A stretch of 63,976 bases of DNA, the filler included, from Gonapodya sp. JEL0774 (lineage: Eukaryota), in NCBI GenBank assembly GCA_027604505.1. It is 6 parts of 6 records of this genome, joined end to end, with 100 filler letters (N's around TTAATTAATTAA, not from the genome) between each part and the next. Parts side by side here need not be neighbours in the genome. Positions count along the whole stretch, not along the records: positions 44,009 to 54,620 come from JADIIX010000376.1; 5 more parts are not named here. One strand, written 5' to 3'. Shown piece after piece: positions 2,581-63,976 of the stretch. The first letter of the stretch is position 1. Every line of letters starts with the position of its first letter. A program made the position numbers and the translations under genes. The notes below the pieces were generated by a model. It made no database searches, had not been told where the DNA came from, and was given only the letters and a program-made list of their open reading frames with translations.

Positions 2581-2989
2581 CGGCTTTGGATCGTGGGCGC
2601 GCAAGTGGAGCGCGAGGGGACGCCAGTTCGTGATCCACCTACTTTCCAAGCGGAGCCCCGTGCACACTCGTAGTTACCAACTAACATGTTAAACATGAAA
2701 GAAGCATCTGCATTTTACTCAAACTTTGACTGCTTTTGAGACCTTTGGACCATCGCGCAAAATCCATCCACCTGAAGAGCAAACGATAAAATGGGGTGAG
2801 CCTATTGTCATGAGCTGAATTCATCATCGATTCCATATCCGGAAGAGGTGAGACACGGAGAAATTTTGTGTTTGAGCTCAACCGTTCAGCTCAACAAAGT
2901 ACATGTGGATGCTGTGGCCACTACTCCGCTCGCCCACATATAAAAACTGCCTGGGATGCGTGACCTTCAATCCCCGAATAACAGGCATC

Positions 2990-9600: not shown

Positions 9601-10045
9601 CAAGCCCATCTCGCCTATGCCACCTCCTCCACCGGCACCCGTTGCATCCGGGTCATCCATGGCGCCGGGAGCACCCATGGCATCGTACCAAGCTGCGCCC
9701 GCACCGGGCGGCCCATCAGCACAGGTCTCGTCGTCACCCCCTACAACTCCAGAACAGATCCTCCTCCACCTCATTTCCCTCCAAAAGTTCAACGGGTCGT
9801 TCCCCGCTGCACCCACACTCTTTTCACTCTCTCCCACCCTCACCGCGACCCCGCCGTCAGGCAGGACTCCCGATCAATGGGCCACTGCGTGCGCCATCGC
9901 GATCATGGAGGTTATCTTGGCAACGCTGAAGGAGGAGTGGGAATTAGTAGCGGAGAAGGCGCAGGGGTGGTTGGAAGGGTCGGTGGGCGACGGATGGACA
10001 GCGTTGGTAGAGGAGGCGAAGAAGCAGATCGGAAACAAGAAATGA
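6694..10045 (+). CDS. VIT + von Willebrand A domain protein (VWA5A-like), copy 2, multi-exon
   Basis: Tandem paralog of 2990-6157 with the same motifs and mostly the same intron positions. It has a different low-complexity linker before LISLQKFNGSF...WELVAEKAQGWL. Confidence 0.92.
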
Positions 10046-18137: not shown

Positions 18138-19154
18138 ATGGCGCTCAACGCGCCTCCTACTTCACCGCAATGAGGTCCTGGGCCTTTGGTCAATTCGCCA
18201 GAGATTCCACTCGACATCATACCAATCGACGATGACGACGATGACGACGACGACGACGATGATGATGATGGTAACTTCTACGTGTCAAAACCCCTTCACG
18301 AGTTCCTCGCAACCGCCCAGTTTACGGATCCTGAGCTCCGAGAGGTCATAGATATGGTAGAATTCAGAAGATTTGCCCTTGGTTCTGTCCTGTATCATCC
18401 TGTATGGGGCACACTCGTCCGGGAAAAACTCATTGAGCATCCAGACCTGAAGGAGGAAGTCAACTCAATCGAAATGTACTTCTATTGTTTCAAAGCCCGT
18501 CGTATACCAATATCCACACCTCCACCTCGCCCCTCTGTCACACCGGTTTCACCCTCTCAGTCATATACTTGCTCCATCTGCAAGGATCTATTCTGCCAAC
18601 CCATGATTTCTTGTCGCGAGTCTCACATCTTCTGTTCTGGATGCATCTACGAGAATCGACAGAAGTCTCTCGAATCATCCGCCCGCTGTCCGCTATGTCG
18701 AACTACGTCATACATCGATCCACTCCCCGTTCCTCGCCAATTCCTCGATGAAATGGATAATCTCGAAGTCGAATGCAAAAATTGCAATGACCATTTTCGG
18801 TATGGGAGCGGAGCGAATCACATGCAAATATGTGTCCAGTGCAGCTCCTGTCTAAAGTACACTGGCCAGCTCCATATCGGAACACACAGAAGCTATTTAT
18901 GCACTTCCACCCTCACTGGACGCCAATGTTCCAATAAATACTGTCAAGAAACTTTCTTGTGCGCTGCGGATGCAAGCAAACATGAGCATAGCTGCGTATT
19001 CAGTCTCCAAAAAGTCAGACACGCTGTGCGTGGCACTATACATTCGCTCATAAATACGCTCAAAAGGAAGGCAGATGAGCTGGATACTGATTTGAACGAC
19101 GTAAATGCGTCACGCGCTTTGAGTAAACAACAGGAGGACAAACCTTTGCAATAA
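18138..19154 (+). CDS. C3HC4 RING + TRAF-like Zn finger protein, intronless, with a premature TGA near the N-terminus
   Basis: RING CSICKDLFCQPMISCRESHIFCSGC...CPLCR followed by Cys/His fingers, with a poly-Asp tract upstream. The in-frame ATG at 18138 is followed by TGA at 18171-18173 (possibly CGA>TGA). A TATAAAAA lies at ~18017. Confidence 0.8.
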
Positions 19155-29475: not shown

Positions 29476-31421
29476 TCAAATGTCAACTGAGATCGCAAAC
29501 CGTGTGGATGGCGCCCTCGTCGCACCACCTACATACTCATCGTTTACCTTAGACTTTCCAAACACCTTGGCCATTTTTTGTTTTAAGGAACCCGGAATAC
29601 TCTCCTTCAAACTTCACGATGCTCGTGATTGCCCATCGACGTTCCGAGGCGGCTCTGTTCTCGGGCTCGAGGGCTGTGTCAAGAAGATGCTGGGGTAGCG
29701 GGAGTGTCTGCATGATTGCGTCCCATGACGGGTCGAAGAAGAAAGGGATCGAAGTTCGATGTGTGGATTCGAGGTTCAGAACGCGGTGACGTGGGGAGAG
29801 GATGAGGCCGTGCGTGGCGCGATCAAGGAGATCACCTGCATTGCAAATCTGAGTTGATAATACGGGAGTGCAAAGTGAGCCAGAAGATCGACAATATCGG
29901 GTACCGAACACGATCCGAGTAAACGACAATGTATAGACTCACAATGGATCCAGGTATGTACGGAACTTGTCCCCACACTCCGATTTTCTCGTTCCAAAAC
30001 TCCAACCCTGGCGCATCCACTGCCAGCATTGTCCACAGTCCATAGTCTGAATGGTCACCGATCCCCGTCTCAGAAAGTTTCGCGGCAGGTGAGTACGAGA
30101 AGAGTCTCACTAGGGCGATCGGATCGTCTTTGGTAAACATGTCGCGTATGGTAGTTTGAGGAAGTTCCAAACCGGTAGAGAGCAGGTCCATGAAGCGTTG
30201 ACCAAGGTCAGTGACGGCGGAGATGTATTCGAGCGCGGCTGGGCGGAGAGACGGGAGTTCTTTATCTGGGAACTGATTGGGTCCAAACAGCGGTGTCGCC
30301 TTCTTGACCCGCGGATAATCAGGGCCGTGCTCGGGTCCCATGTAGAGGCCCTCTTTGTGATCTGTCGTTCCATGAGTAAGTTCTCCACAGGGCATGTAGC
30401 CTCTCCACGCCATGTTACCCTGTTTTTTGACGTGAAGGGCCATTTTGGTCGCCTCCTCAAGCTTGAAGAATGCACGAGCGGCAGCGAGAAGGTCCGCTTG
30501 AAGATTCGTGGGAAGGCCATGGTTCACAGCCACAAAGCCTCCCCATGATCGACATGCGTTGACTATAAGAGATCCAGAATTGGGTAGGGACACATCCACC
30601 ACCGGAACGCGATAAGCAGCAGATAGATCGCCAGCACCCAGCTCCCGTCCGAGACGGGCCAGGAAGTCAAGCATGTAGTTGTGTCGCTCAATAGCGATCC
30701 TCTTGCCCTCGCAGGTGTTTATGCGGTCCTTGAGAAGAAGCAGCTTTTCGAAAAAGTGGGCAACGCTGGACCCGCGATTTTTGTCTGCATACTGAGCAAC
30801 GGTCAATGCACCCGGATCGCGAGGGCCGTCACCTTGTTCGTGGATAGGGCGATGTCTGGTACCGCCGAACGTAAAGCACCTGGCTATTCCGATGGCACCG
30901 ATGGCATCGAGACGGTCTGCATCTTGTACAACGGCTAATTCGAGGGATTTTGAAAGCTGAGCTCCTCCAGTACCATTTGCAAGTGACGTTTTGAAACCGA
31001 TCCCTTCAACGATGCCCACGACCTTCTCGACGAGATCTTGGTGGCACTTTTTCTCCACGAGGAACTCCTTTACAGCGATAGGTCCTGCCTCTTCTGAGCC
31101 AGAGTACTTGTAGTCCTTGATATCGTGAAGAAGGGAAGCCAGTTCCACCACCACCAGATCCGCACCTTCCGCTCGGGCGATTCTGAGAGCTACAGAGCGA
31201 ACCCGGTCAATGTGCGAAAAGTCATGGGACTAAAAGGGACGTGATGACGGCAAGAGTGGAGTATATCGGGCGAGAAAACAAGTCAAGATTCGGGAAAAGG
31301 AAGATTGATGCTTCGAACTTGCGATTAATCGGACGAAACGCACGCCGTCCACTGATTTGAGCTCATCACGGACATATTGCTCTGTCTGGACAATCAGCGC
31401 GTCTTGAGAAGCGGCGGCCAT
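29476..31421 (-). CDS. Fusion of an HD-domain phosphohydrolase (YedJ-like) and a 2-oxoglutarate/Fe(II) dioxygenase (IPNS-like)
   Basis: HD part: SHDFSHIDRV...LLHDIKDYKY...VQDADRLDAIGAIGIARCFTFGG...HFFEKLLLLKD. It continues in the same exon and frame into DIOX_N (VPVVDVS...ACRSWGGFVAVNHG...WRGY) and 2OG-FeII_Oxy (HSD...HRV...RTSIPFF). As assembled the stop is at 29549; an alternative-frame stop is at 29476. Confidence 0.9.
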
Positions 31422-45794: not shown

Positions 45795-45886
45795 AGTAGT
45801 GTAAGGTTATTTTTAGGTCCTGTGTGATGTAACTTTGAAATAGGGTGTTGGAAAATTTCATGGAAGTTGCATTTCCGAATACTTGT

Positions 45887-46680
45887 TCAGGATTGGGATG
45901 GGATGCGCATGGAAGATGGAGATGGGCCTTTCGAGACTTTTTGGTGAGTGCTTGAAGGATGGGATGGGATGGGACCTAGATTCTGAAACACTACGAAACT
46001 CATCCGGGATGGGAATGGCAATGAGGATGTGATGAGACCTAGATTCTGAAACTTTCCGGTGAGTCTTTTAGGATGGGATGGGATGCGGATGGAACTTTCG
46101 AGACTTTTCGGTGAGTGTTTGAAGGATGGGATGGGATGGGATGGGGATGGGATAAGACCTAGATTCTGAAACATTACGAAACTCATCCGGGATGGGGATG
46201 GGGATGGGATGGGATGGAATAGTGATTCTGTAAACTTTCCGAAAACTTGTTTAGGATGGGGATGGGATGAGAGATTCTGAAACTTTTCGGTAAATCTTTC
46301 AGGATGGGATGAGGATGGGATTAGAGATTCTGGAACTTTGCGAAATCTCTTTCAGAATGGGGGATGGTATGAGGATGGGATCTGGATTCTGGAATTTTGC
46401 GAAATCTCATTCAGGATGGGGGATGAGGATGGGATGCGATGGATTGGATTGGTTGGGTTGCACGCAATGTCATGTGATCGAATGGTATGGGATGGGATGA
46501 GGATGGGGATGGGGGATGGGGATGGGATCAAAGATTATGAAACTTTTCGAAAACTCATCCGGAATGGGGATGAGGATGGGATGGGGATGGGATGGGTTGA
46601 GGATGGGGATGAGGGATGAAGATTCTAAAATTTTTCACAAAATGATTCGAGATGGGGATGGGGGATGGGGATGGGATGAA
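45887..46680 (-). repeat. Palindrome/GGGAT repeat array, block 1 (G-rich on +)
   Basis: Degenerate units of GATTCTGAAACTTTTCGAAAACTC(A/T)TCAGGAT followed by (GGGAT)n. Confidence 0.9.
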
Positions 46681-46718: not shown

Positions 46719-47513
46719 CTAGTTCTTACAGTCACCATCAACATCTCTGTACTGTGGAGGAGTGTCCGTTACTATGACTACTAATGGCTTCGCTGTCGCC
46801 TGCGACGACGACGCGAGTTCCACATCATCCGCTGCACCGTTTTGCTTCTTCCCACTGCAACACGCTGCGTAGTCCACAACACACAAACATACGCACACAA
46901 GCATAGAAACTATAAAGCCTGCAAGCATCGCCAACACAGCGAGTGCCCATGTCACACCCGTCACCACTGCCATCCAACGCGGCGACGCCGACGTTCCAGG
47001 AACCCACCCAATGTTCGTGCTGTTCAACACCCTTTCAATCGTTTCTTTCTCTCCGTCACTCATCGCCCAGTTCGTGCTAACATACACCGGCCCAGCTTTC
47101 CCAAAAGATGCCAAAAGTCCGTCACCCGAAACATGCCCTCCAACCATCCATTGTCCAGGTACAGTCCAGTCTAGGTCACCACCTCCGACAGTCCCATTCA
47201 GTTGGTCGGCCAATTCAGACGTCACAGCCAGTGCGTTCCCAATAATCTCGTTCGCCTGCGACAAGGAGTACCCGTACCCAATCGCTCTAATTCGCCGCTC
47301 TGATGGAAGATACACAGTCGCTCCATACATGCCCCAGGTGGTTCTTGCGTACAGTGGACATGTAGTACAGGTCAGTGGATACGTCCGAACCCATCGCGGA
47401 ACCAGCACGTCATGTGCCGTTGTCGTCGTCGTCGTTGTCGTCGTCGCAGTCCCCGTCGCCATGGAGAGTACGACGACTGTCAGTGAAATTAGAAGGGTGC
47501 AAAGAGATTTCAT
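46719..47513 (-). CDS. Intronless hypothetical membrane protein (signal peptide, Thr tract, C-terminal Cys-rich TM)
   Basis: 264-aa ORF: MKSLCTLLISLTVVVLSMA, poly-Thr, then TM segment WMAVVTGVTWALAVLAMLAGFIVSMLVCVCLCVV. Confidence 0.7.
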   Translation of the reverse strand: MKSLCTLLISLTVVVLSMATGTATTTTTTTTTAHDVLVPRWVRTYPLTCTTCPLYARTTWGMYGATVYLPSERRIRAIGYGYSLSQANEIIGNALAVTSELADQLNGTVGGGDLDWTVPGQWMVGGHVSGDGLLASFGKAGPVYVSTNWAMSDGEKETIERVLNSTNIGWVPGTSASPRWMAVVTGVTWALAVLAMLAGFIVSMLVCVCLCVVDYAACCSGKKQNGAADDVELASSSQATAKPLVVIVTDTPPQYRDVDGDCKN

Positions 47514-47694
47514 GGGGATGTGAGGTTGGGCTTGTTGACTCTTGTGATAGTTCGATGCTCAGTTGAGCTATTCTTTGTGCTTTTATGCGAATGCACTTGG
47601 TGTGGCTCAGTGCTATCCTAAAGTAAATATTTTTTTTCTCTTTTATTTGGGGGGATGGATTGGTTGGGTGGCACGTGATCGCATGAGATGTGAA

Positions 47695-47890
47695 TGGGAT
47701 GGGGATGGGGATGGGACTACAGACTTCTGAACTTTCGAAAACTCATCCGGGATGGGGATGAGGATGGGGGATGAGGATGAGGATGGGATGCGAGATTCTG
47801 AAACTTTTCGAAAACTCTTTCAGGATGAGGATGGGATGGAGGTTCTGAAACTTTTCTGAATTTCCTTTCAGGATGGGGATGGGGGATGAT
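47695..47890 (-). repeat. Palindrome/GGGAT repeat array, block 2 (G-rich on +)
   Basis: About 3 units, e.g. ttctgaaacttttcgaaaactctttcaggatgaggatggg. Confidence 0.9.
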
Positions 47891-47993
47891 AACTTTTTTT
47901 TTTCAAACTTTTCCTGGATGGTTCGACATTGTGGCGGAGGAGCACACTGCCTAAAATACCCTGTCGACTCGCCAGCTCTTCACTTTTCCCACC

Positions 47994-48641
47994 ATGACAT
48001 CTTCGCTATTCCCGCCGAGGCCGACTGACCTGGAGGTATCTCGCTGTGGTGGGTACCGCGCTATTCTCTCCCCACATACCTGGTCGGACCTGATAGTGCC
48101 TTCCACAGCTCTACTCTCTCGTGGAGCGTCCAAGCGCGGACTGCCATGGAATCCATTCTTTAATGCGGTTGTGCCTTTTGGCACCCAGGAAGCACTTCTG
48201 TGCGTGCCATATATCGATTCCAACGGGCAGGCCTCCAACTACGTCACGAGTGCTCGCCATGTACAGGTCATCACGAATTTGAACAACGGGTACCTAGCGA
48301 GACTGGACATGTTCAATGCGGTGATTGGATTTCTGGATCTAACATGGACAGAAGAGGTACGTACGTACGTACGTTCTTCTATTGGCGGTACTAACTCATA
48401 GATATTCCGTCAGACCTATGCCCGTCTCAAAGTGACAATGGCCAATCTCTTGCCACATGTCGACCACTACTCGACACAACTCAAAGTTATTCACTCTGAA
48501 TTCCTCGCGCGTCACGGCCTACCAAACAACCAGCAAACCTACGACCCACACCACATCGCTAAAATATGTCGCTCCCTTGTCGACACCCGCCTTCACATCG
48601 ATGTCATACTCGGTCACATTTCCACTTGCGCATCTTTGTAA
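47994..48641 (+). CDS. Hypothetical protein, 2 exons
   Basis: ORF 47994 joins in frame through intron ~48357-48413 (gtacgt...cag) to TYARLKVTMANLLPH...CASL*. Confidence 0.6.
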
Positions 48642-48645
48642 TCGT

Positions 48646-48951
48646 TTATGACGCCATGATTGCGAGAGCACCTATCATGTATCCCATTGTAATAAACTTG
48701 AGTGTTCCGTTCACTGGGGTGAAGTCTCCGTACCCTGTCGTCGTCCCTGTAGTCACAAGGAAGTACACCACGTCGTACATGCTCATCTTCTTCTCTTTGA
48801 ACGAAGAAGGCACGCCCCAGTGTTCCACATCTTGAAACATCCACCATATCACAATCGCCACTGCCATTGTCCACGCTAGCACCACTCCAACCCGCATCAC
48901 AACTTTCCAAACGTCAATCGACTGAAGCTCCTTTGCAAATATTGATGTCAT
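48646..48951 (-). CDS. Miniature 2TM/1P potassium channel, viral Kcv-like
   Basis: 101 aa, intronless. TM1 (VVMRVGVVLAWTMAVAIVIWWMF), turret, pore helix and filter YDVVYFLVTTGTTTGYGDFTP, then TM2 (LKFITMGYMIGALAIM) and an immediate stop. Confidence 0.9.
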   Translation of the reverse strand: MTSIFAKELQSIDVWKVVMRVGVVLAWTMAVAIVIWWMFQDVEHWGVPSSFKEKKMSMYDVVYFLVTTGTTTGYGDFTPVNGTLKFITMGYMIGALAIMAS

Positions 48952-49013
48952 TTTCCCTACCCTTTCTTACAGTAAATCTTTTCTGCTGGTACACTATGCC
49001 GTCATGTCATGGC

Positions 49014-49230
49014 GAGCAACTGTACCAATCCATCCCATCCCCATCCCCATCCTGAAATGCATTTTCGAAAAGTTTCAGAACCTCCATCTCCATCCTCCAT
49101 CCCATCCCATCCAGTATTTTCAAAATCTCCATTCCATCCATCCCATCTTCATCCTATATTTCGTTTTCGGAAAGTTTCAGACTCTGGATCCCATCCCCAT
49201 CCCTCACCATCCCAGGGATCCATCCCACAA
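49014..49230 (+). repeat. Palindrome/CATCCC repeat array, block 3 (C-rich on +)
   Basis: catcctgaaatgcattttcgaaaagtttcagaacctccatc... in reverse orientation relative to blocks 1-2. Confidence 0.9.
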
Positions 49231-49298
49231 TTTTTTCAAAGTTTATTTTTTACTTCATACAAGAATGACCGCCCATCCATCGTCCATCCAATCTTCAT

Positions 49299-49902
49299 AT
49301 GGAGAACGCATTGCAAGTCACTCGAACCAACATTGAGGCTATAACTGCCTACTACGCTCATCGTATATGCGCCAATGGCTTCCAACTCGACCAGCTTGTT
49401 TCCGAATTCAATGCAACCCTTCTGACTGGAAGTCCCACTTTCATACACTACTCAGAGGTTCGGTTTAGTCCTTTGTTCCGTGCCTTCCTTCCACCTGTCC
49501 TCATTCCAGCCATTTCATGTCCTCATTTAGTTGGACTCTTTTGCCCTCACCGCAATGTGGGAGGATTGCGATTCTCTCCATTCTGCACTCTCCAGCCAAA
49601 CTATCTCCACCTCATTTTCAGCCGAGTGTAGTCTCCTCAAAGAGACAATGATAGATCTCTCTATTGCACTCCCAGAGTTTTTGGCCTCCGTTGACAACCT
49701 CATCAATCTCACGACGGAAGAAGCCGTGCCCCAGCTTATCAAACTCGCTGACCTCCAGGACTTTCATGCCAAAACGTCTCGAATCCGCCATCTTCGGGAG
49801 CTAGTGTGGAGTAGTAGTATCTTTCCTTCCCACACTCCTTCAGCGTCCCTAGGCATCGATCCAAAATGTATTTGGGCACAACCTTCATGTGTAATTCAAT
49901 AA
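49299..49902 (+). CDS. Hypothetical helical protein, family copy A (2 exons)
   Basis: IEAITAYYAHRICANG...VSEFNA / ...QDFHAKTSRIRHLRELVW...GIDPKCI, homologous to 53490-54302. Confidence 0.6.
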
Positions 49903-49964: not shown

Positions 49965-50427
49965 CTATCCAATCCCATCCACAATGAGAGAATTGAGAAA
50001 GTTTCAGAGTCTCCATCCCATCCTGAATTCCGGTATCGAGAAGTTTCAGAACCTTCATCCGATCCCCATCCTCAAGGAGTTTTCGAAAAGTTTCAGAACC
50101 TTCATCCCATTCCCATCCCCATCTCCATCTCCATCCTGAAAGGAGTTTTCGAAAAGTTTCAGAACCTTCATCCCATCCCCATCCCCATCCCCATCCTGAA
50201 AGGAGTTTTCGAAAAGTTTCAGAACCTTCATCCCATCCCCATCCCCATCCTGTAGGAGTTTTCGAAAAGTGTCTGAAACTCCATCCAATCCCCATCCCCA
50301 TCCCCATCCCCATCCTGAAAGGAGTTTTCGAAAAGTTTCAGAACCTTCATCCCATCCCCATCCCCATCCTGTAGGAGTTTTCGAAAAGTGTCTGAATCTC
50401 CATCCAATCCCCATCCCCATCCCCATC
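49965..50427 (+). repeat. Palindrome/CATCCC repeat array, block 4 (most homogeneous, ~8 units of ~55-60 bp)
   Basis: Near-identical units CATCCTGAAAGGAGTTTTCGAAAAGTTTCAGAACCTTCATCCCATCCCCATCCC. Confidence 0.95.
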
Positions 50428-50439
50428 ACATTTCAAAAG

Positions 50440-50618
50440 TGCATATAAGTCATTCCATTTGTATTACAGGCAAACAAACCAGTGTCGTAGTTGTGGAATT
50501 TGACGCTCTCGCACAGGACTTTGACAACGCAACCTCCCGCATTCGTGATTTCCGTGAAACCGTCTGGATCAACGCCAGGGACTCTAAATACAGGAAAGAT
50601 GTCCCATCCGGTATCTAA
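50440..50618 (+). pseudogene. Internally deleted copy of the 53490 family gene
   Basis: ICITGKQTSVVVVEFDA is fused directly to LAQDFDNATSRIRDFRETVWINARDSKYRKDVPSGI*. Confidence 0.8.
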
Positions 50619-51221
50619 CACTGCTTGTATATGTAACAATTGAGAAAAAAACAAAGGAACAAAAATAAACTGTGTACAGGCCTGCGCCACGTCTTCGCCA
50701 CCCTTGTCGCCCATTTAAATACAAGCCCACTTCCCCACTTCCCCATTCCCACACATGTCCTCGTCACTCAAAGTAAGCCCTCGTTTTCATTCTATATGGT
50801 CCCACCTCTGTCTGACACCCGGCCTACTCCTGCTCCAGCGTCATCGCGACTTCACTAGATGTCCATCGGTTCGTTCGCCATCCCTCCACTCCCTCTCTCT
50901 TCCCATCGACATCATCTTTCCCTTCACCGCTCTTTCTAGGACTCTGAATCACTCCATACCGGTTCTCCAGGAAGGAGCGAGAGTCGCCACCCGGTATGCT
51001 CCACGTCATGCATTCACAACACATCCAGCAATCTCACTCTCACTATGCCCTTCAGATCGTCACCTCGGATTTATCAGTCAATCAGTCCACGCACGATGTG
51101 CGGAGGAAGCGCCGAAGGCTTGTGAGTTGGCACTACGTGTTACATCTGCCATGAACCCACCCACCCCAGCTCACACTCGTCTCTCACACACTCTCTCTTC
51201 AATCAGCCTCGCAGTAGCGAG

Positions 51222-52264
51222 GTGATTCGCTTGGTCGTCGACCGCAATGGTAAGGACGTGGTCGGTCAGGACCTTCCTGGCCCACCAATAGCCGATAATG
51301 AAGAGACACTGGTGAGATCAAGTCCTACAGGTATACCAAGTGTCGTCGCACTCACAAACTCACTTCCGTATATCAAGGGAGAACCCGTCTCATCCGCGTT
51401 GTCGTATGACAACAACCACTTTAACGAGGTGGGTGAGGAGGCTGACAATTCCGCTAAGGTATGTTACCAACCAGGAATGTGGTTTGTATGCTGAAAGATT
51501 CTCACCGGCTATCGACGACACAGCCCATCGTTTTTTACTCAACAGCGGCCGACCCTGCAAGCAAGGTGGAAGAGAACGTCCAACGTCTCATGCAAGAGAA
51601 GTTGTCACCGCTTTCCGTCGAATATGTCCCTCAGGACATTACCTCGTCTTTCGATGTCACTGGTGTTACCGACGATACACCATTTATCAACGCCAACGTC
51701 AGATGCACCGTCTGCCACATGGGGATCGTAACTAAAATCGTCTGCACCGAAGGTCACGGTCTCTGCTCATCCTGCTCCAGTCATTACACGGCCCAACGTT
51801 TCAGCCCTTGCACACTGAGCCGCTGCTCCGGAACCTTTCTTCCAGTCTTCGCCAATGCAATGTACCAGACTCAGAACGCCATGGCAATCTCCATTCCATG
51901 CTCTTCATGCTCCAAGGTCATGACTTATGGCGACTTACTCAGGCACCGTAGCGGCACACACGACCCATGTCCTTATTTTATCTGCCCCCTCGGCGAGTGC
52001 GGGCTCCCAGTGGGTCGCACCGAACGCAGACAGATTCAGCATCTCACTTACCAATGCTTGTCACCCGAGAGCGCCCGTACCTGTATGTTCGCCACCGCGT
52101 CATTCGCTGTGTCCTCTCTTACTACAAGATTCTCTGTCTGCGGCTATATCGGATCTTGTGCCGCTGACGCGACCAATCACGCCTCGATCAACAGATGCGC
52201 AGGATTCATGATGGGCCTTCTCGATAGGAATATTAGTATTTCAATCCATTTAATACCTGAGTAG
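51222..52264 (+). CDS. RING-like + multiple Zn-finger protein (related to 18138-19154); 5' structure uncertain
   Basis: CTVCHMGIVTKIVCTEGHGLCSSC...PCTLSRC; IPCSSCSKVMTYGDLLRH; CGYIGSCAADATNH. Confidence 0.65.
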
Positions 52265-52527: not shown

Positions 52528-53211
52528 ATGGGGATATTGCTTTCCACATTACAAGGCCCAATCTCGTCGAGCATTTCTTGTGTTTGTGCAGTACTGGTTG
52601 TAGGTTTCCTTCTGAGACAATTTTTCGGAAATCTGTTCGACACAATTGTGAACTTTCTGGCAGTTTTGAATCCGTTCAAGAATTCGTACGGTCGCGGCGT
52701 CGGCACAATCCCATCTGTTTGCGCGAGCAATGAATCTCTCGAAGCCGGACTATGTTACACGAAATGCAAGACCGGGTACCGCGGTTTCGCCACAGTGTGC
52801 GTCCCCGACTGTCCGGAAGGTTTCAGAGACGATGGTCTTTTTTGTTACAAGCCCGGTCCAGATGGCAGAGGGGCGGGATACCCGTGGTCATTCGGGGACG
52901 GACTCAATTTAGATGCGGCAATGTCACGTTGCAACGCCGAAAACGCCGACATAGGATGTGAAGTATGCGGAGCAATAGTATATCCGAAATGCAAACCAAA
53001 CCAAACTGCCGTGGGATGCAATATATGCAGTCCTGTTTGTCCCTCCGACATGACGGATATCGGGATCAGCTGCACGAAGCACACTTACGACAGAGGCGTG
53101 GGTAAAATCCCTGTTAGCTGCCCGACTGAGCAGGAAAACAGTGGTGGTTTGTGCTACGACAAGTGTAAGCCAGAGTTTCCTCATGGAGCTGGGCCAGTTT
53201 GTTGGGCTTGA
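52528..53211 (+). CDS. Intronless Cys-rich YGRGVG-repeat protein with N-terminal TM
   Basis: TM segment, then repeats SYGRGVGTIPSVC...GLCYTKCKTGY...VC..DCPEGFRDDGLFCYKP...GRGAGY...TYDRGVGKIPVSC...GLCYDKCK...GAGPVCWA*. Confidence 0.8.
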   Translation: MGILLSTLQGPISSSISCVCAVLVVGFLLRQFFGNLFDTIVNFLAVLNPFKNSYGRGVGTIPSVCASNESLEAGLCYTKCKTGYRGFATVCVPDCPEGFRDDGLFCYKPGPDGRGAGYPWSFGDGLNLDAAMSRCNAENADIGCEVCGAIVYPKCKPNQTAVGCNICSPVCPSDMTDIGISCTKHTYDRGVGKIPVSCPTEQENSGGLCYDKCKPEFPHGAGPVCWA

Positions 53212-53445
53212 AGCAACTGAACCAATCCATCCCATCCCCAACCCCATCCTGAAATGCATTTTCGAAAAGTTTCAGAACCTCCATCTCCATCCCATCCCAT
53301 CTCATCCCCATCCACATCCTCATCCCATCCCCCATCCTGAAAGAGATTTCGTAAAGTTTCAGAATCCGGATCCCATCCCCATCCTGAACAAGTTCTCTAA
53401 TAGTGTCTGAAAATCTTCATCCTATCTTCATCCTATCCCATCCCT
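53211..53445 (+). repeat. Palindrome/CATCCC repeat array, block 5 (C-rich on +)
   Basis: The first ~75 bp are nearly identical to the start of block 3. Confidence 0.9.
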
Positions 53446-53489
53446 CTCAACCTAAAAAATACATAGAAGTGATTTTCCGAATCCCAAGT

Positions 53490-54302
53490 ATGGCTCCATC
53501 GTGGCGCGACCTGCGATCAGCACTCGAAATATCTGTGTCTCGCTTGGTCAGCGACCGCATGTCCGCCATCACAGCCCATCATGCAGCCACCATTTGTGCT
53601 GCAGGCAAACAAACTTATGTGGTCGTTGCGGAATTTGACGCTCTCCTCATCCGCTTTCGCGACGACCTCACAAATTCTCAATTGCCACTTTCAAAGAAAC
53701 TCTTCCCTTTCTCAATGGTAACTCGCGACAGTCCTTTGCTCCTCTGGACCTATTGCGTCACCTCTCGCATTTGTGTATTTCAGGACAATAAGCAATCCCG
53801 CGACATCTGGCATCTCTACGAACAACTGGAAGATGATCTATCAACTAACTCAGTCACAGCCAAACTCATCGCTACCTGCGAAACGCTCCGACTTGACCTC
53901 GTTGCTTTTTGTGGCCCCGCAGTCAATCCTGAATACATCTCTCGCGCTATCCAATCCGTCAAACTCTTCGCTCTCCCCGCTCTCGTCAACCTCGCTCTCG
54001 CACAGGACTTTGACAACGCAACCTCCCGAATTCGTGATTTTCGCGAAACCATCTGGATCACCGCCAGGGACTCTAAATGCAGAAAAGATATACCTTCCGG
54101 TATCGACCCCGCATGTATATTGAATGATAAGATTTTTTTTGACTGTCCATGGGCTGAGCCACTTTTTCTCGGCTGGCGACCGTGGCCACATTATTCTCAA
54201 TCGCCGATTCCCCATCGTACCAATGTCAGCCAAGGCAAGCCATCCACATCGCGCTATTCGTTTTTTTCCACCTCTGCCTTACACCGGACCTCCTCCTGCT
54301 GA
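53490..54302 (+). CDS. Hypothetical helical protein, family copy B
   Basis: MAPSWRDLRSALE...MSAITAHHAATICAAGKQ...VAEFDA, a likely in-frame intron at ~53718-53783, then QDFDNATSRIRDFRETIW...GIDPACI. The 3' end is uncertain. Confidence 0.65.
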   Translation: MAPSWRDLRSALEISVSRLVSDRMSAITAHHAATICAAGKQTYVVVAEFDALLIRFRDDLTNSQLPLSKKLFPFSMVTRDSPLLLWTYCVTSRICVFQDNKQSRDIWHLYEQLEDDLSTNSVTAKLIATCETLRLDLVAFCGPAVNPEYISRAIQSVKLFALPALVNLALAQDFDNATSRIRDFRETIWITARDSKCRKDIPSGIDPACILNDKIFFDCPWAEPLFLGWRPWPHYSQSPIPHRTNVSQGKPSTSRYSFFSTSALHRTSSC

Positions 54303-54720: not shown

Positions 54721-56555
54721 TGCCAGATCTGCTGGCTGTTGCAGAAAAAGCATGAGCATTCAGAGCCATTGGCTCACCATTTGGATCAAGTGTGGAAACG
54801 TAAGCAAGGAACCCAACTGGGCTCTTATCTGCATCAAAATTCTGTAAAGTTTGAAAGCTAGAGGATTGATTGTCCCCTCCCCGACGGACCCACGAGCAAA
54901 AGTCTAAGGGGGGTTGGGGCCCCCCAGTGACTTTTGCTCGTGGGGCTGTCGGGGAGGGGAGGGAGCCCCGCGCAGCGGCCGCTTGTAGCGATGCTGTGCC
55001 ACAGTGCCGCGAAGAAAAGTAATTGCGGACAGGGTGTCCCTTCCACTCACCTGACTGTGCAACACGATCCAAGAAATGGGGCCTGCAATTCGAATACTGA
55101 GAAAAGTCCTCTGTATTCTGCTCCTCCTCTACATCGCCATCTACGTCAAATCCATCCTCAATATCCTTTTCTGCAAAATAAACCCTTGCGTAGAAACCAC
55201 CACGACCTCTGTTTTGACCTCTACCACCTCCACAACTAGTTCCTCTCCAGGTTCCATCAGCCTGGTTCATTCCACCTCCACATTAACCTCCGCGGTTGTC
55301 TGGAACTCCATGTCTCCTGCCAAATCTAACTTCACCACCGGGTCTTCCCCAATCACTTCTATTTCCACCAACCCTCGCTTGAATCTGACTCGCCCACTCT
55401 GCTGGTGTGGCGCAGTCACGACCAAAGTGTCCATATCCGAGACAGCGGTTGGATTGCTCAAATGGTGTTTCAGACCTTCGGTTTCCTCCCATCACTGCCT
55501 GTCCCTGATCCACTGCATTTGCCTCCGCGCCTGTGAGTCGACCACAAATCTTGGCGTCTCAAAGTGTGCTCGTGATTTCGGCAACAGATGGTGGTGTGGA
55601 ACCGGACGATATGATGAATCGATCGTAAAGATAATCTGAGAGATGTTTTGCCCCTTCCAAGAAAATTCTTGTTTCCTCAGACAGTGAGAGTGTTCCCCCA
55701 GTCGCTTGGTACTCGTTTTTGAGTCTGCTAAATGTGCTGAGATACTCAGTGACTGATCCGTCCATCTGCACATCTTCAAGTGCACGCCTCTTCGCAAACT
55801 CCTCTGCCTTCCGATTTCCATGAGACGTTGTTTTCAATTGCTCCCATAGTTCTACTGATGTGTTGCAATCCATGATCAAAAGGAATAGATCGTCAGATAT
55901 GATTGAAATCAACGCTGCCCTTAATCCCCGATCCATCTTGTCCCATTCGTCTTGTTTCTTCTCAATTTCCGCTTTGACTTCTTTGCCCGCTGTTGCTGGC
56001 GGGTCTGCGGGCCGTTTTGCAACCCCTGTGACCATCTTCCACGCCCCCAGGACAGTTTCCATTTGAACCCTTGCAATCCCCATCCATACCAGGTAATTGT
56101 CTGCTCCAGTGAGCTTATTTGTCACTCTCTTTGCCTGCGCATTGAATCTCCGTCCATCACTCATGGTTGGTTGACGTGGTGTGAGTGGGAGGGGTCCCAA
56201 TTCAATGTCCAACTCCGTCAAGAATTTCCACCAGTTCCTATTTGTATCCACCTTCAGAGCTCCAGGCTCATAACCTAATGACCTTTTGAGAGGTTGGAGG
56301 CGGTTACGATTCTTATCTATTCTTATCGATTGCTCTGTCGCTGTGCACTACTGTGGTCACTAGTGCTGCACTCTTGCCCCACACTCCAAGTCTAACTGCT
56401 CACTACATAACTCCACAACCAGGAACACTAGAGACATTGTTCAAGTACCAAAATGCATCTACTCTTCAAGACGGTTCCAATGCGCCTAACAGCATACCTT
56501 GATCACTATCCGCTGTTGAGCTATTTGACATCCAAACTCTACCCATACTTCAATA
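54721..56555 (-). mobile_element. Ty1/Copia element B: 5' LTR (56555-56276), PBS GGTTATGAGCC, decayed gag
   Basis: The gag reads KLTGADNYLVWMG...WKMVTG...DEWDKMDRGLRAALISIISDD...SVELWEQLK. The PBS immediately follows a 280-bp LTR. Confidence 0.88.
54872..55087. mobile_element. 216-bp non-autonomous insertion with a terminal foldback hairpin, flanked by ATT direct repeats
   Basis: 32-bp inverted arms at 54873-54904 and 54929-54960 (2 mismatches). ATT at 54869-54871 and 55088-55090. CpG-rich relative to the host Copia sequence. Confidence 0.6.
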
Positions 56556-57373
56556 TGAATATCAGGCTGTTATGGACAGGAGTCAATTTACATCTGCCTT
56601 TCATGTTTTGACAGAATTAGACAGACTTTACAAGAGCAAGTCTCAGATTTTTCAGGATCATCTTATGGATGATTATATCAGTTTACAGTTTGAGTTCCCA
56701 TCAGAGAACCTCCAGTCATTCCTTACCAGAGCAAATGAGATGAGGAGCAGATTGGACACTATCGATTCATCTCAGAAAATTCCAGAGAGAATTCATCGGC
56801 ATATACTTGTGAAAGCCATTTCATCTGTTGATGATTTCAAAGATTTCAGGACTGTTGTGTATGCTGGTCTTGGAGACAGTGAGAATCTCACTACTGAGAG
56901 GGTTTTAAGGGAGGCACGCCGTCTGGTGGAGAGTCGAGAAAGGGAGTTGAGGGAAAACTCTTCAGACAATGCATCTGCAAATTATACAGCACGTGGCAAG
57001 AAAGTGCTCACATGTTTTTCATGTGGAAAACCTGGGCATACTGCCAGATTCTGTCCATCTAATAAAGAAGAGAAGAAAGTCTCTCAAGATGATTTATCTG
57101 GTCACTCTGCTTCAAAGAGCACATATTTTCTTGGGGATAATGTTCAGTATCAGGCCCTTAACTGGTTTGCAGACAGTTGTGCACCAAATCATATTGTTAG
57201 AGATCAATATGGACTTCTTAATTATGAGTCCACATCATATACACCTATCACCATTGGTGGCAGAGAATTCTATGTGGAAGGCATTGGAGATCTGAAACTC
57301 AGTTTACCCAAGGGCAATGGACAATATGAGGATGTGATCTTGAAGAATGTTCAGCATGGTCCAGGTCTGAATG
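56556..57373 (+). mobile_element. Ty1/Copia element A: gag-protease fragment, cut on both sides by other elements
   Basis: Zn knuckle CFSCGKPGHTARFC; protease WFADSCAPNHI...VEGIGDLKL...LKNVQHGPGL. Confidence 0.88.
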
Positions 57374-60070
57374 TGTTGAAATATGGGAAGTTTGACATTT
57401 CGGATGGCCCTAGCACCACAGGGAGTTGAAATACGGGATTTATTAATTGATCAAAATTACTTGCCGTAAAATTCTCTACAAGTTTGTCATTCACAGTTTT
57501 GTGCTAGTGTTATTGGTTAGTGAGCTACACTAGGGAACGTTTGTAACTTGTGCACACACTTGGGGACAGTGCTGTGGCCACAATGTAGTAGTGAGGTTGT
57601 TTTGTGTGAATGTGTTTGAATAAGAAAATCGTAACGCTCAACAGGTTAGCCCGGTACCTCAACGTGCTTAAACCAGATCTGAATCAGTGGATCAAAGGAA
57701 GTGGAGTGTGGTGCTCTAGAAGGGCTGAGTTGAAAACTCCAGGCGCAATTGCTTGTGAACCAGCTGACATTTTAACCTGCAATTTTGTGGAGGCAATAAT
57801 GTTTTCATTTACTATCGATTGCCGTTGGTCCGCTTTGTTTTGGTGCAGAATTGATTGAGGATCGTGGATTCTTGTGGTGCATATAAAGACAATTTCGGAC
57901 TTCAATTCGAGGCCAATCCGGGACTTTGAGTAGTTGATTCCGACGCTAAGTTACACGAAGAGTCAATTGCCGTTGTTATTGAAGTATCGGTGGAATTTTG
58001 ATGTTGAATAGCTCAACAACAGACAGTGATAGAAGGACGCCAATAGGCGCATTGAAACCGTCTTGAAGAGTAGATGTGTTTTGGTACTTGAATGATCTCT
58101 CTAGCGTTCCTGGTTGTGGAGTTATGTAGTGAGCAATTGGACTTGGAGTGTGGGCCGAGAGTACAGTAGTAGTGACCACAGTAGTGCACAGTGACAGAGC
58201 GATTGAGAATAATATTGATACGTCGCAACCGCCCCCAACCCCTCGTAAGCTCATTAGTTGTTGTTTCTGGAATCAGAGCAGCTGTTTGCGATCAAATCCC
58301 AGAAAACCAAAAAATTGAAGACCTTTTCTTGGTCAGCTTTCTCCACATTCAGTGGCTTGTTCTCAGGGCAATTCAAACGACTAAGTTGAGTCATTGAGAC
58401 GTATTTACTGTGAAATTTTCAGGTCAAAATGAAATCTTGTGAACTTTAGGTGGTGGTGCTGTGTTAAGAGTTCTGCTGATCACCCCAACTCTCTTCAAAC
58501 TTGTTGCGTCAGACTAATTCTGGTATCACTAGAATTGTCTCATCAAACTCTACATTTTGTTTGCTCTGAAGGATCTGGAATTCCAATTTTTGAAGAACTT
58601 GGCATTTTGGTGTGGACAAGTGTGTGTGGGGCATACAGAAATGGAGACTAACTTTTCCTCTCACTCTTTCAAGAAAACTGTGGGAGTGTTAGAGTCTGCA
58701 GAAAAGTTTGCAGGGTGGAGAGACAAAGTTGAGGTTGAGCTGGATGCACAAGGCTTGCTTGGGATCTTGAATGGGAAAGAAGGACGTCCAACTGAAATTG
58801 AGCTCCAAAGGGTTTGGGATAAGAAAAACAGTGCAATACTGGCTGCATGGTATGCTACAGTGGCAGACAAATTGCGTGGAGTCCTGCAGAAGGATAAATT
58901 AGCTGCTGACAACTGGGTCAATTTGAGGACACTTTATGAGCCAAAGCTGATTTCAGAGAGATTTGTCCTACTCTCAAAACTTCAAAACATGAAGTTGCAA
59001 ACTTGTATACTGGATTTGCTGCAGAATCTTACAACTTGCTTCAAACGCTTGTCAGAAATAAGTCCTGATGAACCAGTTGCCGAGATTGATAAGATCCATT
59101 ATTTCCTGGCTGCTGTTAAGTCAAAGTATCCAGTGGAAGCCACAATTTGGTTCCAAAGAAGCAATGCTAGCTTTCTTGAAGTTGTTAATGGCTTACGTTC
59201 TGCTGAAATGAGAGAGTCTTATGAGAAAAGCTGTAAACCTTTGATCAGGTGTGTCAACTGTGGATTGACTGGCCACCTTCAGGCAAATTGCAGGAGACAA
59301 GAAGGGGGAAATCAGAAGAGTGGTTTTAAGTCCAGGTTTTCCTGGCCGGCATCACCCACAACTCCACCTGCAGCAAATTGGGGTGCGGGGGTGTCGAAGG
59401 GAGTTGGCCTTAGTCCCCACAAGGGACCTTGCAAAGACCCCGTTGCAAGTGGCCAGAAAACAGATAAGTTGAAAATGGAGATTGAGCATGCAAAAACTTG
59501 TCTTGCAACTGCTGATGTTGATCAATTTGGACCCAGTGATAAGGCTCTGTGTTTCTTGGCTGCAAGTTCTCAACACAGAATTCTTATTGATTCAGCTGCA
59601 ACAGATTGCATTACGTCTTTAAGTGATGCTCTGGTGGACTTTTCTCCACAACCTGTCATGTTAGCTTTAGCTGCAAAAGGGGCCAACTCTATGGCTTCTG
59701 GACGTGGATCTTTGACTGTCCGATTTCAGGGACCTCAGAAGTTTGTTGATGTGAAGATAGGAAGAGTTATTCTGGATCCAAATGCAAGGAATACCTTGCT
59801 GGCAACAGCATCACTGCAAGCTCTTGGATTTCAGATTACCTTCCCAGCATTTGAGAATACCTGTGTTATCAGTCATCAAAATGGTACAGAGATTTGTAGA
59901 GGTTATAGGCGTTCTGGCAATCTGTATGATATGCCCATTTCAGTGATTTATCCCAGTGTTGGAAATGCAGAGATTCATAGTGCAGAGCCTGCTGAACATG
60001 TCATAAAGCATGCATTGGCACATTTGAAACTTGCACATGTTGGAGATAGAGATCTGGTTGTAACTTTGAC
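57374..60070 (+). mobile_element. Ty1/Copia element C: 5' LTR 57374-57643 (TGTTG...CAACA), PBS-like GGTTAGCCC, gag-protease-preintegrase ORF (58557-60107)
   Basis: FAGWRDKVEVELDAQGLLGILNG; knuckle CVNCGLTGHLQANC; protease ILIDSAATD; pre-integrase HLKLAHVG. Confidence 0.85.
57977..58256 (+). mobile_element. Solo LTR of family B with 5-bp target-site duplication GTTGT
   Basis: 280 bp, homologous (inverted) to 56276-56555. GTTGT at 57972-57976 and 58257-58261. Confidence 0.9.
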
Positions 60071-60099
60071 GCGATATCAAAAACGTTTTTGCAACAGAA

Positions 60100-63000
60100 C
60101 TTTTTGAATAGTTGCCAGTATCCTCGTAGATTTGAGGCCAGTGAATTTTCTGTGGTGTTAGGAACTGGTCCAACGTCGTACTCAGTTGGAAGAATACATG
60201 TGTCTGTGCAAGTTGAAAACGGTTGACAATTGTATTCATGGCTTCACATTGTTCCAGGATTACAACATGATGTAACTCTTGGTATATGCTTTCACAAGAA
60301 CTCTGGCGCTTTGATAGATTGGCAAGCTGCAACACTCCAGTTCCCATTGACACAGAGCACTTCGGTCAAAACATGCGGTTACTCAGAACCTGCAAAGCTG
60401 AATGTTGAGTCACATGAAGTGATTCTTGAAGCAGGTGATGCTGTTCTCGCGTTGATGGAAGACATAACTGTGCCGATGGAATCATCTGTGGGAGTGAAAG
60501 TTATTGCTTTGAGTCATTCTCAATGCAAGATATCGCAGGCAGAGATGCTCTTGTCCACCCTAGCCCGCTATATTTGGCACGCGATGATCTCATGGTGCCA
60601 CATGGTGTACAAACGTTTGAATCCAATGGTGAAGCTTGGATAAGTCTTACAAATTGGACAACAAAAGACTTGTTCATTTCCAAAGGTGCCTGCATAGGCC
60701 ACTTTGAATTGATCAACACAAAAGACTTTCATTTCATAACAGGAAATGAGGATCAGCAACCATGTGATCCTTCTCTGCTTTTTTCACGTGATGGGAAGAT
60801 ACTTGAGCCAAAAACGAATTTGGTTCCTACAATTGGTACTGATGACCTTGGTATCCCTGGCCTTGACTTGTCCAAAACAGTTCTTCATGATAAAGAACTT
60901 AATCTTTTGAAAGAATTGTCACGTCGCAATCAAGATGCTTTCAGTGTTGGCGATAAACCTGGTTATATTTCCAGCGTGAAACATCATATTCCGACTGGTG
61001 GTGCTCTACCAATAAAAGCACCACTACATTGCTCTAGTCCAGGTGATCGGGCTAAGATTGATGAAGCATCTGATAAAATGCTGCTTGATGGTATTCTGGA
61101 ACATTCGGTCAGTGACTGGTCAGCTCCTGTTGTGATGGTGCCAAAGAAGGATGGAAAGCTACGTTTTTGTGTTGATTACCGTAGACTTAATGCCGTCACA
61201 AAAAAGGATGTTTATCCTTTGTGGCGCATTGATGATATGCTTGAGGCAATGCAAGGTGTGAGGGATTTTCCAATCCCGCAAACACTGAAAGAGCGCCAAA
61301 GGTTTTTGGGCATTACAGGGTATTACAGACACTTCATACGTAACTACGCACATCTTGTAGTGCCATTGACTGATCCGACTTTGGAAGTTTCTGTAGTTGA
61401 TGTGACTTCTGGTCCAGTGGTCATGAATATGTGGTTGACTACGGGAGTAAGCATTTAACTCCTGCTGAGCGCAAATGGGACACAAGAACCCTTGAAGCAT
61501 TTGCTACAATTTGGGGTTGTGAATATTTTAGACATTTTCTGGTTGGTGTGCCTTTTGACAAACTTATCATGAATTGCCTCAAAATGTTGAAAGATGCGAA
61601 GAGCACTGGCAAGATTGTGAGATGGGCTATCCAATTGACGGAATTTGATTTCATTCCTGTCTACAAACCTGGCAAACATCATTTCAATGTTGATGCCCTA
61701 TCACGAATTGAAATTCCTGGTGAGGACATGGAAGTTGATGATACAATTCCTACGTATGGTGATGATAAACCATCTGCTACTGTTGCACCTGTTGAACAGC
61801 AACAACAAGTGATGAATTGCTTCATGTTTTGCCCAAGCTTAGTTGTGCCTTTTGAAACTATGAATGAAGAAACCAAATGCTATTGAGCATGATGAAGACT
61901 CACACTAGATCTAGCACAAAGACAAGCACTGCTGCTACGTCTAACGACATAAATGCTGAAGTCTCAACTGAATCGGCTGAAAACGTTGCCCTTCCATTTG
62001 ATGGTATATCTTTTGATGATAAAGCATATTGTGCTTCAATGATTGCAGATCAATTGAAAGATCCTCAATTGTTGAAGATTATTGAGGTCTTGACGAATAA
62101 GATTCCTGACAGTAAATCAAATGAAAGAGCTTACGTTGCTGTGCGTGAAGCTGCCTCTGAAATGGCTTACTAATGCGTATTGAAATGAAGAATGTGCCAA
62201 CAACTGGTCCTAATGCTCAACCTGATGGAGAAGCCCAGCACAAGTTGTAGTGCCCCGCTTCCGTCGTGAAGCTATGCTGCAATCATGTCATGAAGATCGG
62301 ATGGCAGGACATCAGGCTGTGAATGCTATGTTGCAACGTTTATTTGAACGTTATTACTGGCAAGGAATGAGTCACGATGTTTGCGAGTGGGTTGGAAGTT
62401 GTTTGACTTGTCACAGTCGGAAATGTGCAAAGCCACAATGGCATGGGTTTTTACAGCCATTTGATTTTTCAACAGCGCAACTGTGGGAAGATATTGCGAT
62501 CGATCACATTGGACCATTTCCTGTTACTGAAAGGGCAGATCAGTACATTCTAGTTGTCAGTGATATGTTTACGAGATTTGCTGAGGCAATTCCTGTAACT
62601 GACACTACGGCAGCAACAACAGCGCTTTCCTTGTATAACTAATGGATTTGCCAGTATGGAATCTTCCGACGTTTACATTCTGACTGTGAAACTGCATTCC
62701 ACAAAGATCTGATGAAGGCATTGGCCCTACGCTTTGGTTTTGAGCAAACTATTACGTCCCCACATCACCCGCAAGGTAATCCTTACACGGAACAATTTAT
62801 GAAACCATTGGGTGACGCGTTGACTGCATATGTCAATGATCAAAGTCAATCTGATTGGGACAAAGTGCTACCATCCATTATGTTTACGTACTTATCATGT
62901 GTTTACTCTACAACAGGTGATACTCCATTTTTCTTCGCAATGGGACGTGATCCACAAATGCCTACTGATGTTATGTCAGGCTTGTCACATCGAGATTGAA

Positions 63001-63350
63001 GATTGAATGTTGAGCCTCACTTGCCCATCTCAACAATGTTGTCTGAAGCGTACTCAGCACTTTGTGAACGCTTGGTGAAGTCTGCTGAAAAGCGTAAATT
63101 CATCTATGATGTCAGGCATCTTGACACCCATTTTGGGCCTGAGAACATTGCGATGGTATATTATGAAGAAGCCCACCGTGAAGGCAAAAGTACAAATTTA
63201 TATCACGATGGATTGGTCCTTATCGTATTCTTGAGGAGGTTTCTCCAGTGACATATAAAGTGCGACACCTTTATACTGGTGCAGAGACTACTGCGCATGT
63301 TCAGCGTCTTTGGAAAATTGTGTCGCATCCACGAATACTTGGTGATTTCA
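60100..63350 (+). mobile_element. Ty3/Gypsy pol remnant (RT with internal deletions, RNase H, integrase), multiply disrupted
   Basis: WSAPVVMVPKKDGKLRFCVDYRRLN; FLGITGYYRHFI; EAFATIWGCEYFRHFL; RWAIQLTEFDF...YKPGK; integrase HEDRMAGH...CLTC, IAIDHIGP, TSPHHPQGN. Confidence 0.92.
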
Positions 63351-63559
63351 AATTATTGCTATCTCTAATAATTTGGTTAGGAATGATGGAATCCAATAGA
63401 AAACACTGAAAATACTGTGTGAACAACACACTGTCACAAAGAATGCCGAACACTGCAACAAGCAGCACCTAGACCGCAAATGTCCGGCTCCAATGGGCAG
63501 GGTGGATGGGGTAGTCGAACAGGTCCGGTAGAAAAAACGGGGAACTGCGTGTGGTGGAG

Positions 63560-63976
63560 CAAAATTATTGATTTTACAGTTTCAAGTTCAAAACCTTCAC
63601 TGTGTGGGCAAGTGACAGCAATTTTGCAACTACCTGTAAACAGTTCTTAAAGGAACTCGGCAGTCCAGTTCTCCATGAACAGACAAATCACATTGGTGTG
63701 AAGTTTCACTTTATCAGGGAGCAGTTGCAAAGGAGGTTACTTAAACTGTCTCACTGTCCAACAAAGCGCAACACTGCAGATGTCATGACCAAACCATTGT
63801 CAACACCTGATTTTGAAGGCACTGTGCAGGAATGGGAATAGGAGCAATTGGATAGTTGGAGTTGATAGGAAACAATACACTGGAGTGTTTTGTTTCAGTG
63901 GGAGTGTGAAGTCTTGGGTGATACACCATTGGTGACATGATTATTTGTATGTTTTGGATTTGGACTCTAGAGGTGA
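63560..63976 (+). mobile_element. Ty1/Copia 3' end: RNase H C-terminus, polypurine tract and start of the 3' LTR (~63905)
   Basis: HEQTNHIGVKFHFIREQL...HCPTKRNTADVMTKPL, then AGTGGGAG followed by TGTGAAG. Confidence 0.8.

Follow-up and report, generated by a model that had tools for sequence, protein, structure and literature searches.

Potassium channels of viral origin have been described from algal giant viruses and from some phages (PMC6163359). The Kcv proteins of chloroviruses are very short (KcvPBCV-1, 94 aa; KcvATCV-1, 82 aa; KcvGNLD22, 89 aa), as are the prasinovirus channels Kmbv1 and Kmpv12T (78-79 aa), and chlorovirus Kcv is reported to depolarise the host, with loss of K+ and water and a drop in turgor, and to exclude other viruses (PMC7354518). 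A giant-virus K+ channel gene can also reside within a eukaryotic genome; the example is Kesv 2, the host-integrated channel of an Ectocarpus siliculosus virus, which differs by 7 residues from its virus copy and belongs to a known lysogenic system of a brown alga (bioRxiv 10.64898/2026.07.31.740523).

Giant-virus genes are likewise reported from zoosporic fungi, the group to which the aquatic genus Gonapodya (Monoblepharidomycetes) belongs. Examples are latent Mycodnaviridae proviruses, capsid genes in two Monoblepharidomycota and, in three chytrids, lone viral genes within contigs that otherwise look like host DNA (PMC13533422); the main text of that report contains no occurrence of potassium, ion channel or Kcv. 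For the congener G. prolifera, 24 ViralRecall regions are given, some with MCP, D5, VLTF3 or capping-enzyme genes and one of them entered in the high-confidence table (PMC13524828), and its viral genes are said to lie in small islands surrounded by genes of eukaryotic type (PMC5294986).

Here we report that the assembly of Gonapodya sp. JEL0774 contains a complete, intron-free gene for a predicted minimal K+ channel. The stretch of DNA analysed (the window; 63,976 nt, filler included) consists of contigs of about 11 kb and is not one locus. The channel-bearing contig (44009-54620; 10,612 bp) is bounded by joining spacers of the form N44-TTAATTAATTAA-N44, and a reading of the window as one contiguous locus was rejected because these spacers separate contigs. 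The channel ORF lies on the minus strand at 48646-48951, with an ATG at 48951 and a TAA at 48646-48648, and is described here from translation, Pfam, alignment, AlphaFold2 modelling and an intron scan. It encodes 101 aa; on the plus strand the frame over the same interval is interrupted by stops and gives no ORF. The protein matches Pfam Ion_trans_2 with an E-value of 5e-10 (39.6 bits, curated cut-off 22.5). A simple GT..branch..AG scan of the minus strand from 48640 to 49400 yielded zero intron candidates, while the same scan was positive in neighbouring genes. The initial annotation had described an intact, intronless 101-aa ORF with the order TM1, turret, pore helix, filter and TM2, lacking regulatory domains and lying in a fungal-like genome, and all of this is borne out, the last point at the level of the assembly.

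The AlphaFold2 model, based on a 15-row alignment of the channel with 14 relatives, has a pLDDT of 91.1 and a pTM of 0.78. Its helices comprise an N-terminal helix (residues 2-10), TM1 (14-39), the pore helix (58-70) and TM2 (82-100), and there is no C-terminal tail; the turret holds W45-x-x-P48, and the filter consists of T71-T72-G73-Y74-G75-D76. By Pfam, model and intron scan, the channel has no extra TM segments, second pore or nucleotide-binding domain. It thus shares with the chlorovirus and prasinovirus Kcv channels two TM helices, a pore helix, a TxxTxG(Y/F)GD filter, the lack of a regulatory domain and a similar size, and its N-terminal helix resembles the slide helix of KcvPBCV-1. It differs from them in that it is found in a fungal assembly rather than in an algal virus, and in that it appears to fall in a clade of its own, marked by a W-x-x-P-x-x-Y/F turret. 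Named viral channels match it by fold only: a Foldseek search of the model against BFVD and PDB returned nothing at E 0.001 or better. The top sub-threshold rows were viral K+ channels in BFVD (Tetraselmis virus 1, Rhizochromulina virus, Fadolivirus and EsV-1; 12-28% identity) and solved K+ channels in PDB.

When four copies of the chain were predicted together, the complex scored 0.81 compared with 0.00 for the best of three controls, and filter residues 71-75 converged at the axis; across runs, contact agreement was at least 89% and pLDDT at least 81. Of 30 solved pairs, 21 attained the mark used to read this score, as did none of 23 single chains, in a calibration on two copies that is unlike the four-copy job. 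Because K+ channel tetramers have already been solved, the score reports likeness rather than binding, and likeness to solved channels may explain the pass. Read in this way, the channel protein is predicted to form a homotetrameric pore.

The selectivity filter is not unusual. The initial annotation had singled out TTGTTTGYG as atypical, a reading that we reject, because the stretch conforms to the T-x-x-T-x-G-Y-G signature (T68, T71 and G73-Y74-G75) and because the filter TTTGYGD is found in five of 26 SAG chlorovirus Kcvs, with TTTGFGD in the functional KcvGNLD22 (PMC7354518). In our collected set of pore modules, which is not de-duplicated, T-T-G-Y/F-G is present in 54 of 433. The unusual filters are instead those of the relatives, 13 of 14 of which have a Phe before the filter Thr (x-F-T-V/I-G), whereas the fungal copy has T-T-T-G and so lies nearer the usual signature. 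This Phe may alter selectivity or gating within the subfamily. Its members include L001 (9920-10234), P0160-P0164, and P0004, P0025, P0037, P0038, P0068 and P0087.

Could the ORF be an exon, or a decayed piece, of a larger fungal channel of the TOK, Shaker-like or CNG type? Fungal TOK and Shaker-like channels share its pore fold and filter but are much larger and have a multi-helix architecture. TOK chains are 758-795 aa long and match the channel weakly (E 0.12-0.22), TOK1 being among the weak PDB sequence matches at E 0.12. In a search of 1.84 billion protein representatives, the lowest E-values belonged to multi-pore proteins of 382-602 aa; however, such scores add up several pore domains. 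The gene structure argues against a fragment. The stop codon of a convergent gene lies 4 nt from that of the channel, so that downstream exons have no room; upstream there is a repeat array, and the minus strand offers no splice candidates as far as 49400. The C-terminal ends of all 14 relatives fall within two residues of the channel's end column in the alignment, and several relatives also begin at the same position. Because of the nearby convergent stop and this shared end column, we regard the gene as complete, and no other channel domains occur on the contig. At the sequence level the protein appears to be a stand-alone channel of the kind spanning about 80-125 aa without sensor or cytoplasmic domain, being 101 aa long and ending as its relatives do. 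An origin as part of a larger channel is therefore very improbable.

Database searches point the same way. Among the best 150 rows from the 1.84 billion representatives, the top identity to the channel was 46%, and none of 242 hits reached E 1e-30; an annotated longer product with the same pore is therefore absent from that collection. An exact-sequence look-up in the protein collection found neither the channel nor any of 10 other window ORFs, and the gene has probably been overlooked by annotation. A word-based homologue search with the single channel protein gave three candidates, none significant, and no close or named fungal relative, in a collection that included the proteins of G. prolifera. 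Scanning three of 64 metagenome parts with a generic filter pattern gave mostly generic matches and no subfamily members.

What the channel does have is a set of 14 small, uncharacterised relatives (75-139 aa) that share its W-x-x-P-x-x-Y/F turret, its length and its end point and fall with it in one clade. The best 150 representatives contained 14 single-domain proteins of 139 aa or less, eight of which have this turret in common with the channel. A profile search added five further members at E 1.5e-20 or better, the next hits falling to 5e-6, and IMG/VR contributed one, L001, the best among 49 loci, at 35% identity. Identity to any relative is 23-38%. In a leave-one-out HMM built from the 14 relatives with the channel excluded, the channel scored 76.3 bits; members reached 102-137, and the two highest-scoring non-members 62.1 and 55.0. 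Of the 433 modules, 16 have the turret motif, 15 of them within the subfamily, with both motif and subfamily defined after the hits had been seen. The pattern T-W-F-T-V/I-G has a single matching stretch across all of IMG/VR.

A maximum-likelihood tree was computed from 126 pore modules and 85 columns (56 short modules and the 70 best-scoring long ones; rows more than 80% alike were removed, including P0160 and P0163). The channel is sister to the 12 remaining members with support of 99/96, in a bootstrap that had not fully settled. It forms the basal branch of the clade and is not nested within it; the direction of transfer is therefore not fixed by the tree. The clade is separate from the other small IMG/VR channels, in a tree that holds no named chlorovirus sequences, and it lies on the side of the tree with 15 of the 18 small IMG/VR channels, at weak support (87/90). 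Forcing the channel to group with 18 modules of larger multi-pore channels lowered lnL by 23.7, and the AU test did not formally reject this grouping (p 0.126), nor with it a cellular origin.

The basal position leaves room for a second scenario, in which zoosporic fungi possess a native mini-channel and MY_03 viruses (see below) copied it from their hosts. The non-nested placement, the AU result, host-like codon use and the sporadic presence of the channel in viruses would all fit, and three relatives (P0007, P0011 and P0025) have a less AT-biased residue make-up than the others and could be cellular. On the other hand, the search of the 1.84 billion representatives gave no fungal relative that was close or named, the gene is intronless among intron-bearing neighbours, and its clade falls on the side of the tree holding most small viral channels. 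We regard this scenario as rather unlikely.

Still less probable, in our view, is a KcsA-like channel acquired from a prokaryote, or a contaminant contig from another organism. Two of the three top Atlas clusters for the channel (0.91) are labelled Bacteria, and the contig is assigned to Gonapodya from its introns and GC. However, across 185,579 prokaryote genomes the subfamily's commonest filter pattern is matched once, by a 151-aa channel of ordinary type with a score of 28 bits, and fungal-type introns with CTAAC branch sites flank the channel gene.

The genomic context is known for one of the 14 relatives; the other 13 are metagenome proteins on short contigs, although some of their clusters include contigs of 7-81 kb. 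The one that can be placed, L001, is a 104-aa channel on the giant-virus contig GVMAG-M-3300023174-59 (IMG/VR), where it adjoins a D5 primase-helicase. The same contig, with a GC content of 24%, also encodes TFIIS, asparagine synthase, dCMP deaminase, HSP20 and MSV199/T5orf172. A search with its D5 gave 31 loci. Seven of them (53-74% identity) belong to four GVMAGs that the supplement of PMC8575486 assigns to IM_18. In an unrooted D5 tree, the D5 of the L001 contig nests among those of IM_18, and none of the D5-relative GVMAGs whose classification can be traced, a minority of the names, lies outside IM_18; the family assignment of this virus comes from one marker gene. IM_18 has since received the name MY_03 and been united with Mycodnaviridae in a proposed order, Mycodnavirales, whose predicted hosts are fungi (PMC13524828). 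The channel is missing from all seven D5-related virus records, two of them rated complete; it is therefore not a core gene of this virus group, and its occurrence among D5-related viruses is sporadic. The initial annotation had called the channel viral-type, of the kind found in chloroviruses and prasinoviruses. The viral link is supported, in that the only placed relative belongs to a giant virus, but it points to IM_18/MY_03 rather than to chloroviruses or prasinoviruses. On an origin in Nucleocytoviricota the evidence is mixed: the one placed relative lies on a giant-virus contig, whereas the channel's own contig has no hallmark genes and the AU test gave p 0.126.

On the channel's own contig, genes with introns alternate with orphan ORFs and five repeat arrays in a mosaic, and we infer from its fungal-type introns and matching GC that it belongs to the fungus. 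The convergent neighbour (47994-48641, plus strand; 196 aa when spliced) contains a 57-nt GT..CTAAC..CAG intron at 48357-48413 and matches nothing in Pfam or NCBIfam. Other genes include an F-box-like ORF and a kinase split by introns, with several intron candidates. A Cys/His-rich zinc-finger ORF of RING/TRAF-like appearance (51461-52264, plus strand) gave a non-significant Sina_RING match only. Searches with Pfam, NCBIfam and BLAST of the ORFs found no capsid, polymerase, D5 or other giant-virus hallmark gene on these 10.6 kb, the whole extent of the contig. The GC content is 0.45-0.50, which is host-like, and the GC3 of the channel gene is 0.59, compared with 0.43-0.59 in six host-type genes and 0.26 in L001, the host averages being those of this window only. 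Host-like GC3 fits either long residence with the open frame kept, which would point to selection, or a GC-rich donor.

Alternatively, the contig could derive from a provirus, recent or intact, or from a free giant virus co-assembled with the fungus, and the channel would then still be a working viral gene. The tight packing of the convergent pair, the many orphan ORFs, the F-box-like ORF and a Cys-rich giant-virus look-alike would be at home in such a genome, and latent Mycodnaviridae proviruses do occur in zoosporic fungi (PMC13533422). But several introns on the contig are of spliceosomal type, including those of the kinase, GC and GC3 are host-like and no hallmark gene is present. In comparisons with three sets of viral loci and records, no ORF but the channel matched: the other ORFs of the contig had no match in the 49 IMG/VR loci, those of the window none in 492 kb of D5-related viral loci, and four neighbour genes none in any of five D5-related virus records. 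We consider a provirus or free virus unlikely.

The Cys-rich look-alike (52528-53211, plus strand) is a repeat ORF of 227 aa located 3.6 kb from the channel; its N-terminus is hydrophobic, and the intron scan gave no candidates in it. Its two nearest Atlas clusters, which are leads only, are 100% viral and mostly Nucleocytoviricota (0.85 and 0.83), and four IMG/VR loci among 32 candidates carry a similar repeat, one of them in GVMAG-S-1035082-44, which is also a D5 relative. Similar Cys-rich repeats occur in oomycetes and other protists. Because of this, and because the scan covered viruses only, the ORF is not diagnostic of a virus. The initial annotation had spoken of a putative fungal virus remnant; in favour of this there is the Cys-rich ORF as one virus-type lead, and against it the contig has no hallmark genes and the neighbours carry introns. 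Exact-peptide scans of IMG/VR with this ORF and with a second one at 46719-47513 found nothing. The latter (minus strand, 264 aa) has a signal-like N-terminus, a Thr run, one TM segment and a Cys-rich tail, and yielded no family match and no IMG/VR relative; it has arrays on both sides and no intron candidates.

Five intergenic minisatellite arrays are present (45870-46680, 47640-47920, 49015-49240, 49980-50430 and 53212-53450), with units of 47-72 nt, a palindromic core of the TTTTCGAAAA type and (CCCATC)n runs. The two on the left are inverted relative to the three on the right, and face away from the convergent pair that contains the channel. The other contigs of the window show no such arrays. 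The array core had no match in IMG/VR, which speaks against a provirus; the arrays may resemble viral homologous-repeat regions, a point in its favour. A mobile element is another possible source of the arrays, besides viral repeat regions. The array at 49015-49240 (plus strand) starts 63 nt upstream of the channel ATG, and from this position it may act as a promoter or enhancer of the channel. Its first 81 nt (49015-49095) are 98% identical to 53212-53292, so that array heads of this kind adjoin both virus-type genes, and the Cys-rich ORF stops exactly at the array junction, mid-repeat, as if truncated by capture. Directly after an array in each case lie three copies of a paralogue family (49299-49902, 50455-50632 and 53490-54302), one of them internally deleted and the second and third 88% identical in DNA over 129 nt; the family has no Pfam or NCBIfam match. 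Together, paralogues and arrays give the impression of a module, made up of an array and a gene, that was duplicated in tandem and now has other genes interspersed.

Taking these observations together, we favour the explanation that the gene encodes a Kcv-type channel, came from a Mycodnavirales-like giant virus and was left behind in fungal DNA, with a probability of roughly 0.6. A viral leftover is likely because the one relative with a known context belongs to a giant virus whose group is predicted to infect fungi. Gonapodya would thus have acquired the gene from such a virus, and what remains of the viral DNA would now be a small, eroded island surrounded by genes with introns. On this reading the gene parallels Kesv 2, as both would be giant-virus K+ channel genes within a eukaryotic genome, but the Gonapodya channel shares about 30% identity with the closest viral relative, uses host-like codons and sits on a contig without provirus genes. 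It also resembles the Mycodnaviridae-type endogenous elements of zoosporic fungi, which include single genes on contigs that match the host in GC and in intron density (PMC13533422). Those elements, however, are defined by capsid and core genes (PMC13533422), none of which was found on the channel's contig, nor does the contig have a GC content or intron density unlike that of the host.

By analogy with Kcv, and leaving aside membership of Kcv proper, the channel would work as follows. In the modelled arrangement, four subunits would set their T-T-G-Y-G filters about one axis to give a K+-conducting pore, which is presumed to be open without ligand, as in Kcv, because a sensor and a C-terminal domain are absent. 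In the donor virus, the channel would reside in the virion membrane and depolarise the host at entry or fusion; K+ and water would then be released, turgor would fall and a second infection would be blocked. Fungal cells are walled, as are those of algae, so the same need at entry plausibly applies. In the fungus, the channel, if transcribed, would act as a background K+ leak. A broader idea, which we put forward as speculation and rate as doubtful, is that Mycodnavirales possess their own minimal K+ channel lineage for depolarising walled fungal cells, and that Gonapodya has domesticated one such channel, expressed from the adjacent array, as a background channel or as a shield against superinfection. 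If so, it would be the smallest of all K+ channels that fungi use.

Channels of the Kcv type are already known, as are copies integrated into host genomes; what is surprising here is the fungal host kingdom. A literature search, with subscription papers and picture-only supplements outside its scope, did not find a Kcv-type channel in a fungus or in a fungus-infecting virus. The gene connects MY_03, for which fungal hosts are otherwise only predicted, with a cultured fungal genus by an independent route, and the channel is a candidate for the entry mechanism of MY_03 viruses. It also opens up a minimal-channel subfamily that is so far uncharacterised, in which the turret is distinct and the filter takes unusual forms, and at 303 nt the gene is directly assayable in K+-uptake-deficient yeast or in bilayers.

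Finally, we note several features on other contigs of the window. A RING protein clearer than the ORF at 51461-52264 is encoded at 18354-19154. On the contig at 22047-32948 (10,902 bp), a single frame on the minus strand (29835-31229) joins an HD-domain hydrolase to a 2OG-Fe(II) dioxygenase N-terminal domain, according to a domain scan; an annotated protein of Gonapodya sp. (P0189, 100% identical) keeps both domains and a G. prolifera hit (62%) covers the dioxygenase alone, so that the frame is either a real fusion or a merged annotation. The segment at 54721-63976 holds nested pieces of LTR retrotransposons, with fragments of copia-type gag, zinc knuckle, RT and integrase. Two tandem, intron-rich genes, read from the translation, occupy 2903-10045 on the plus strand, and presumably encode VIT/vWA-domain proteins.
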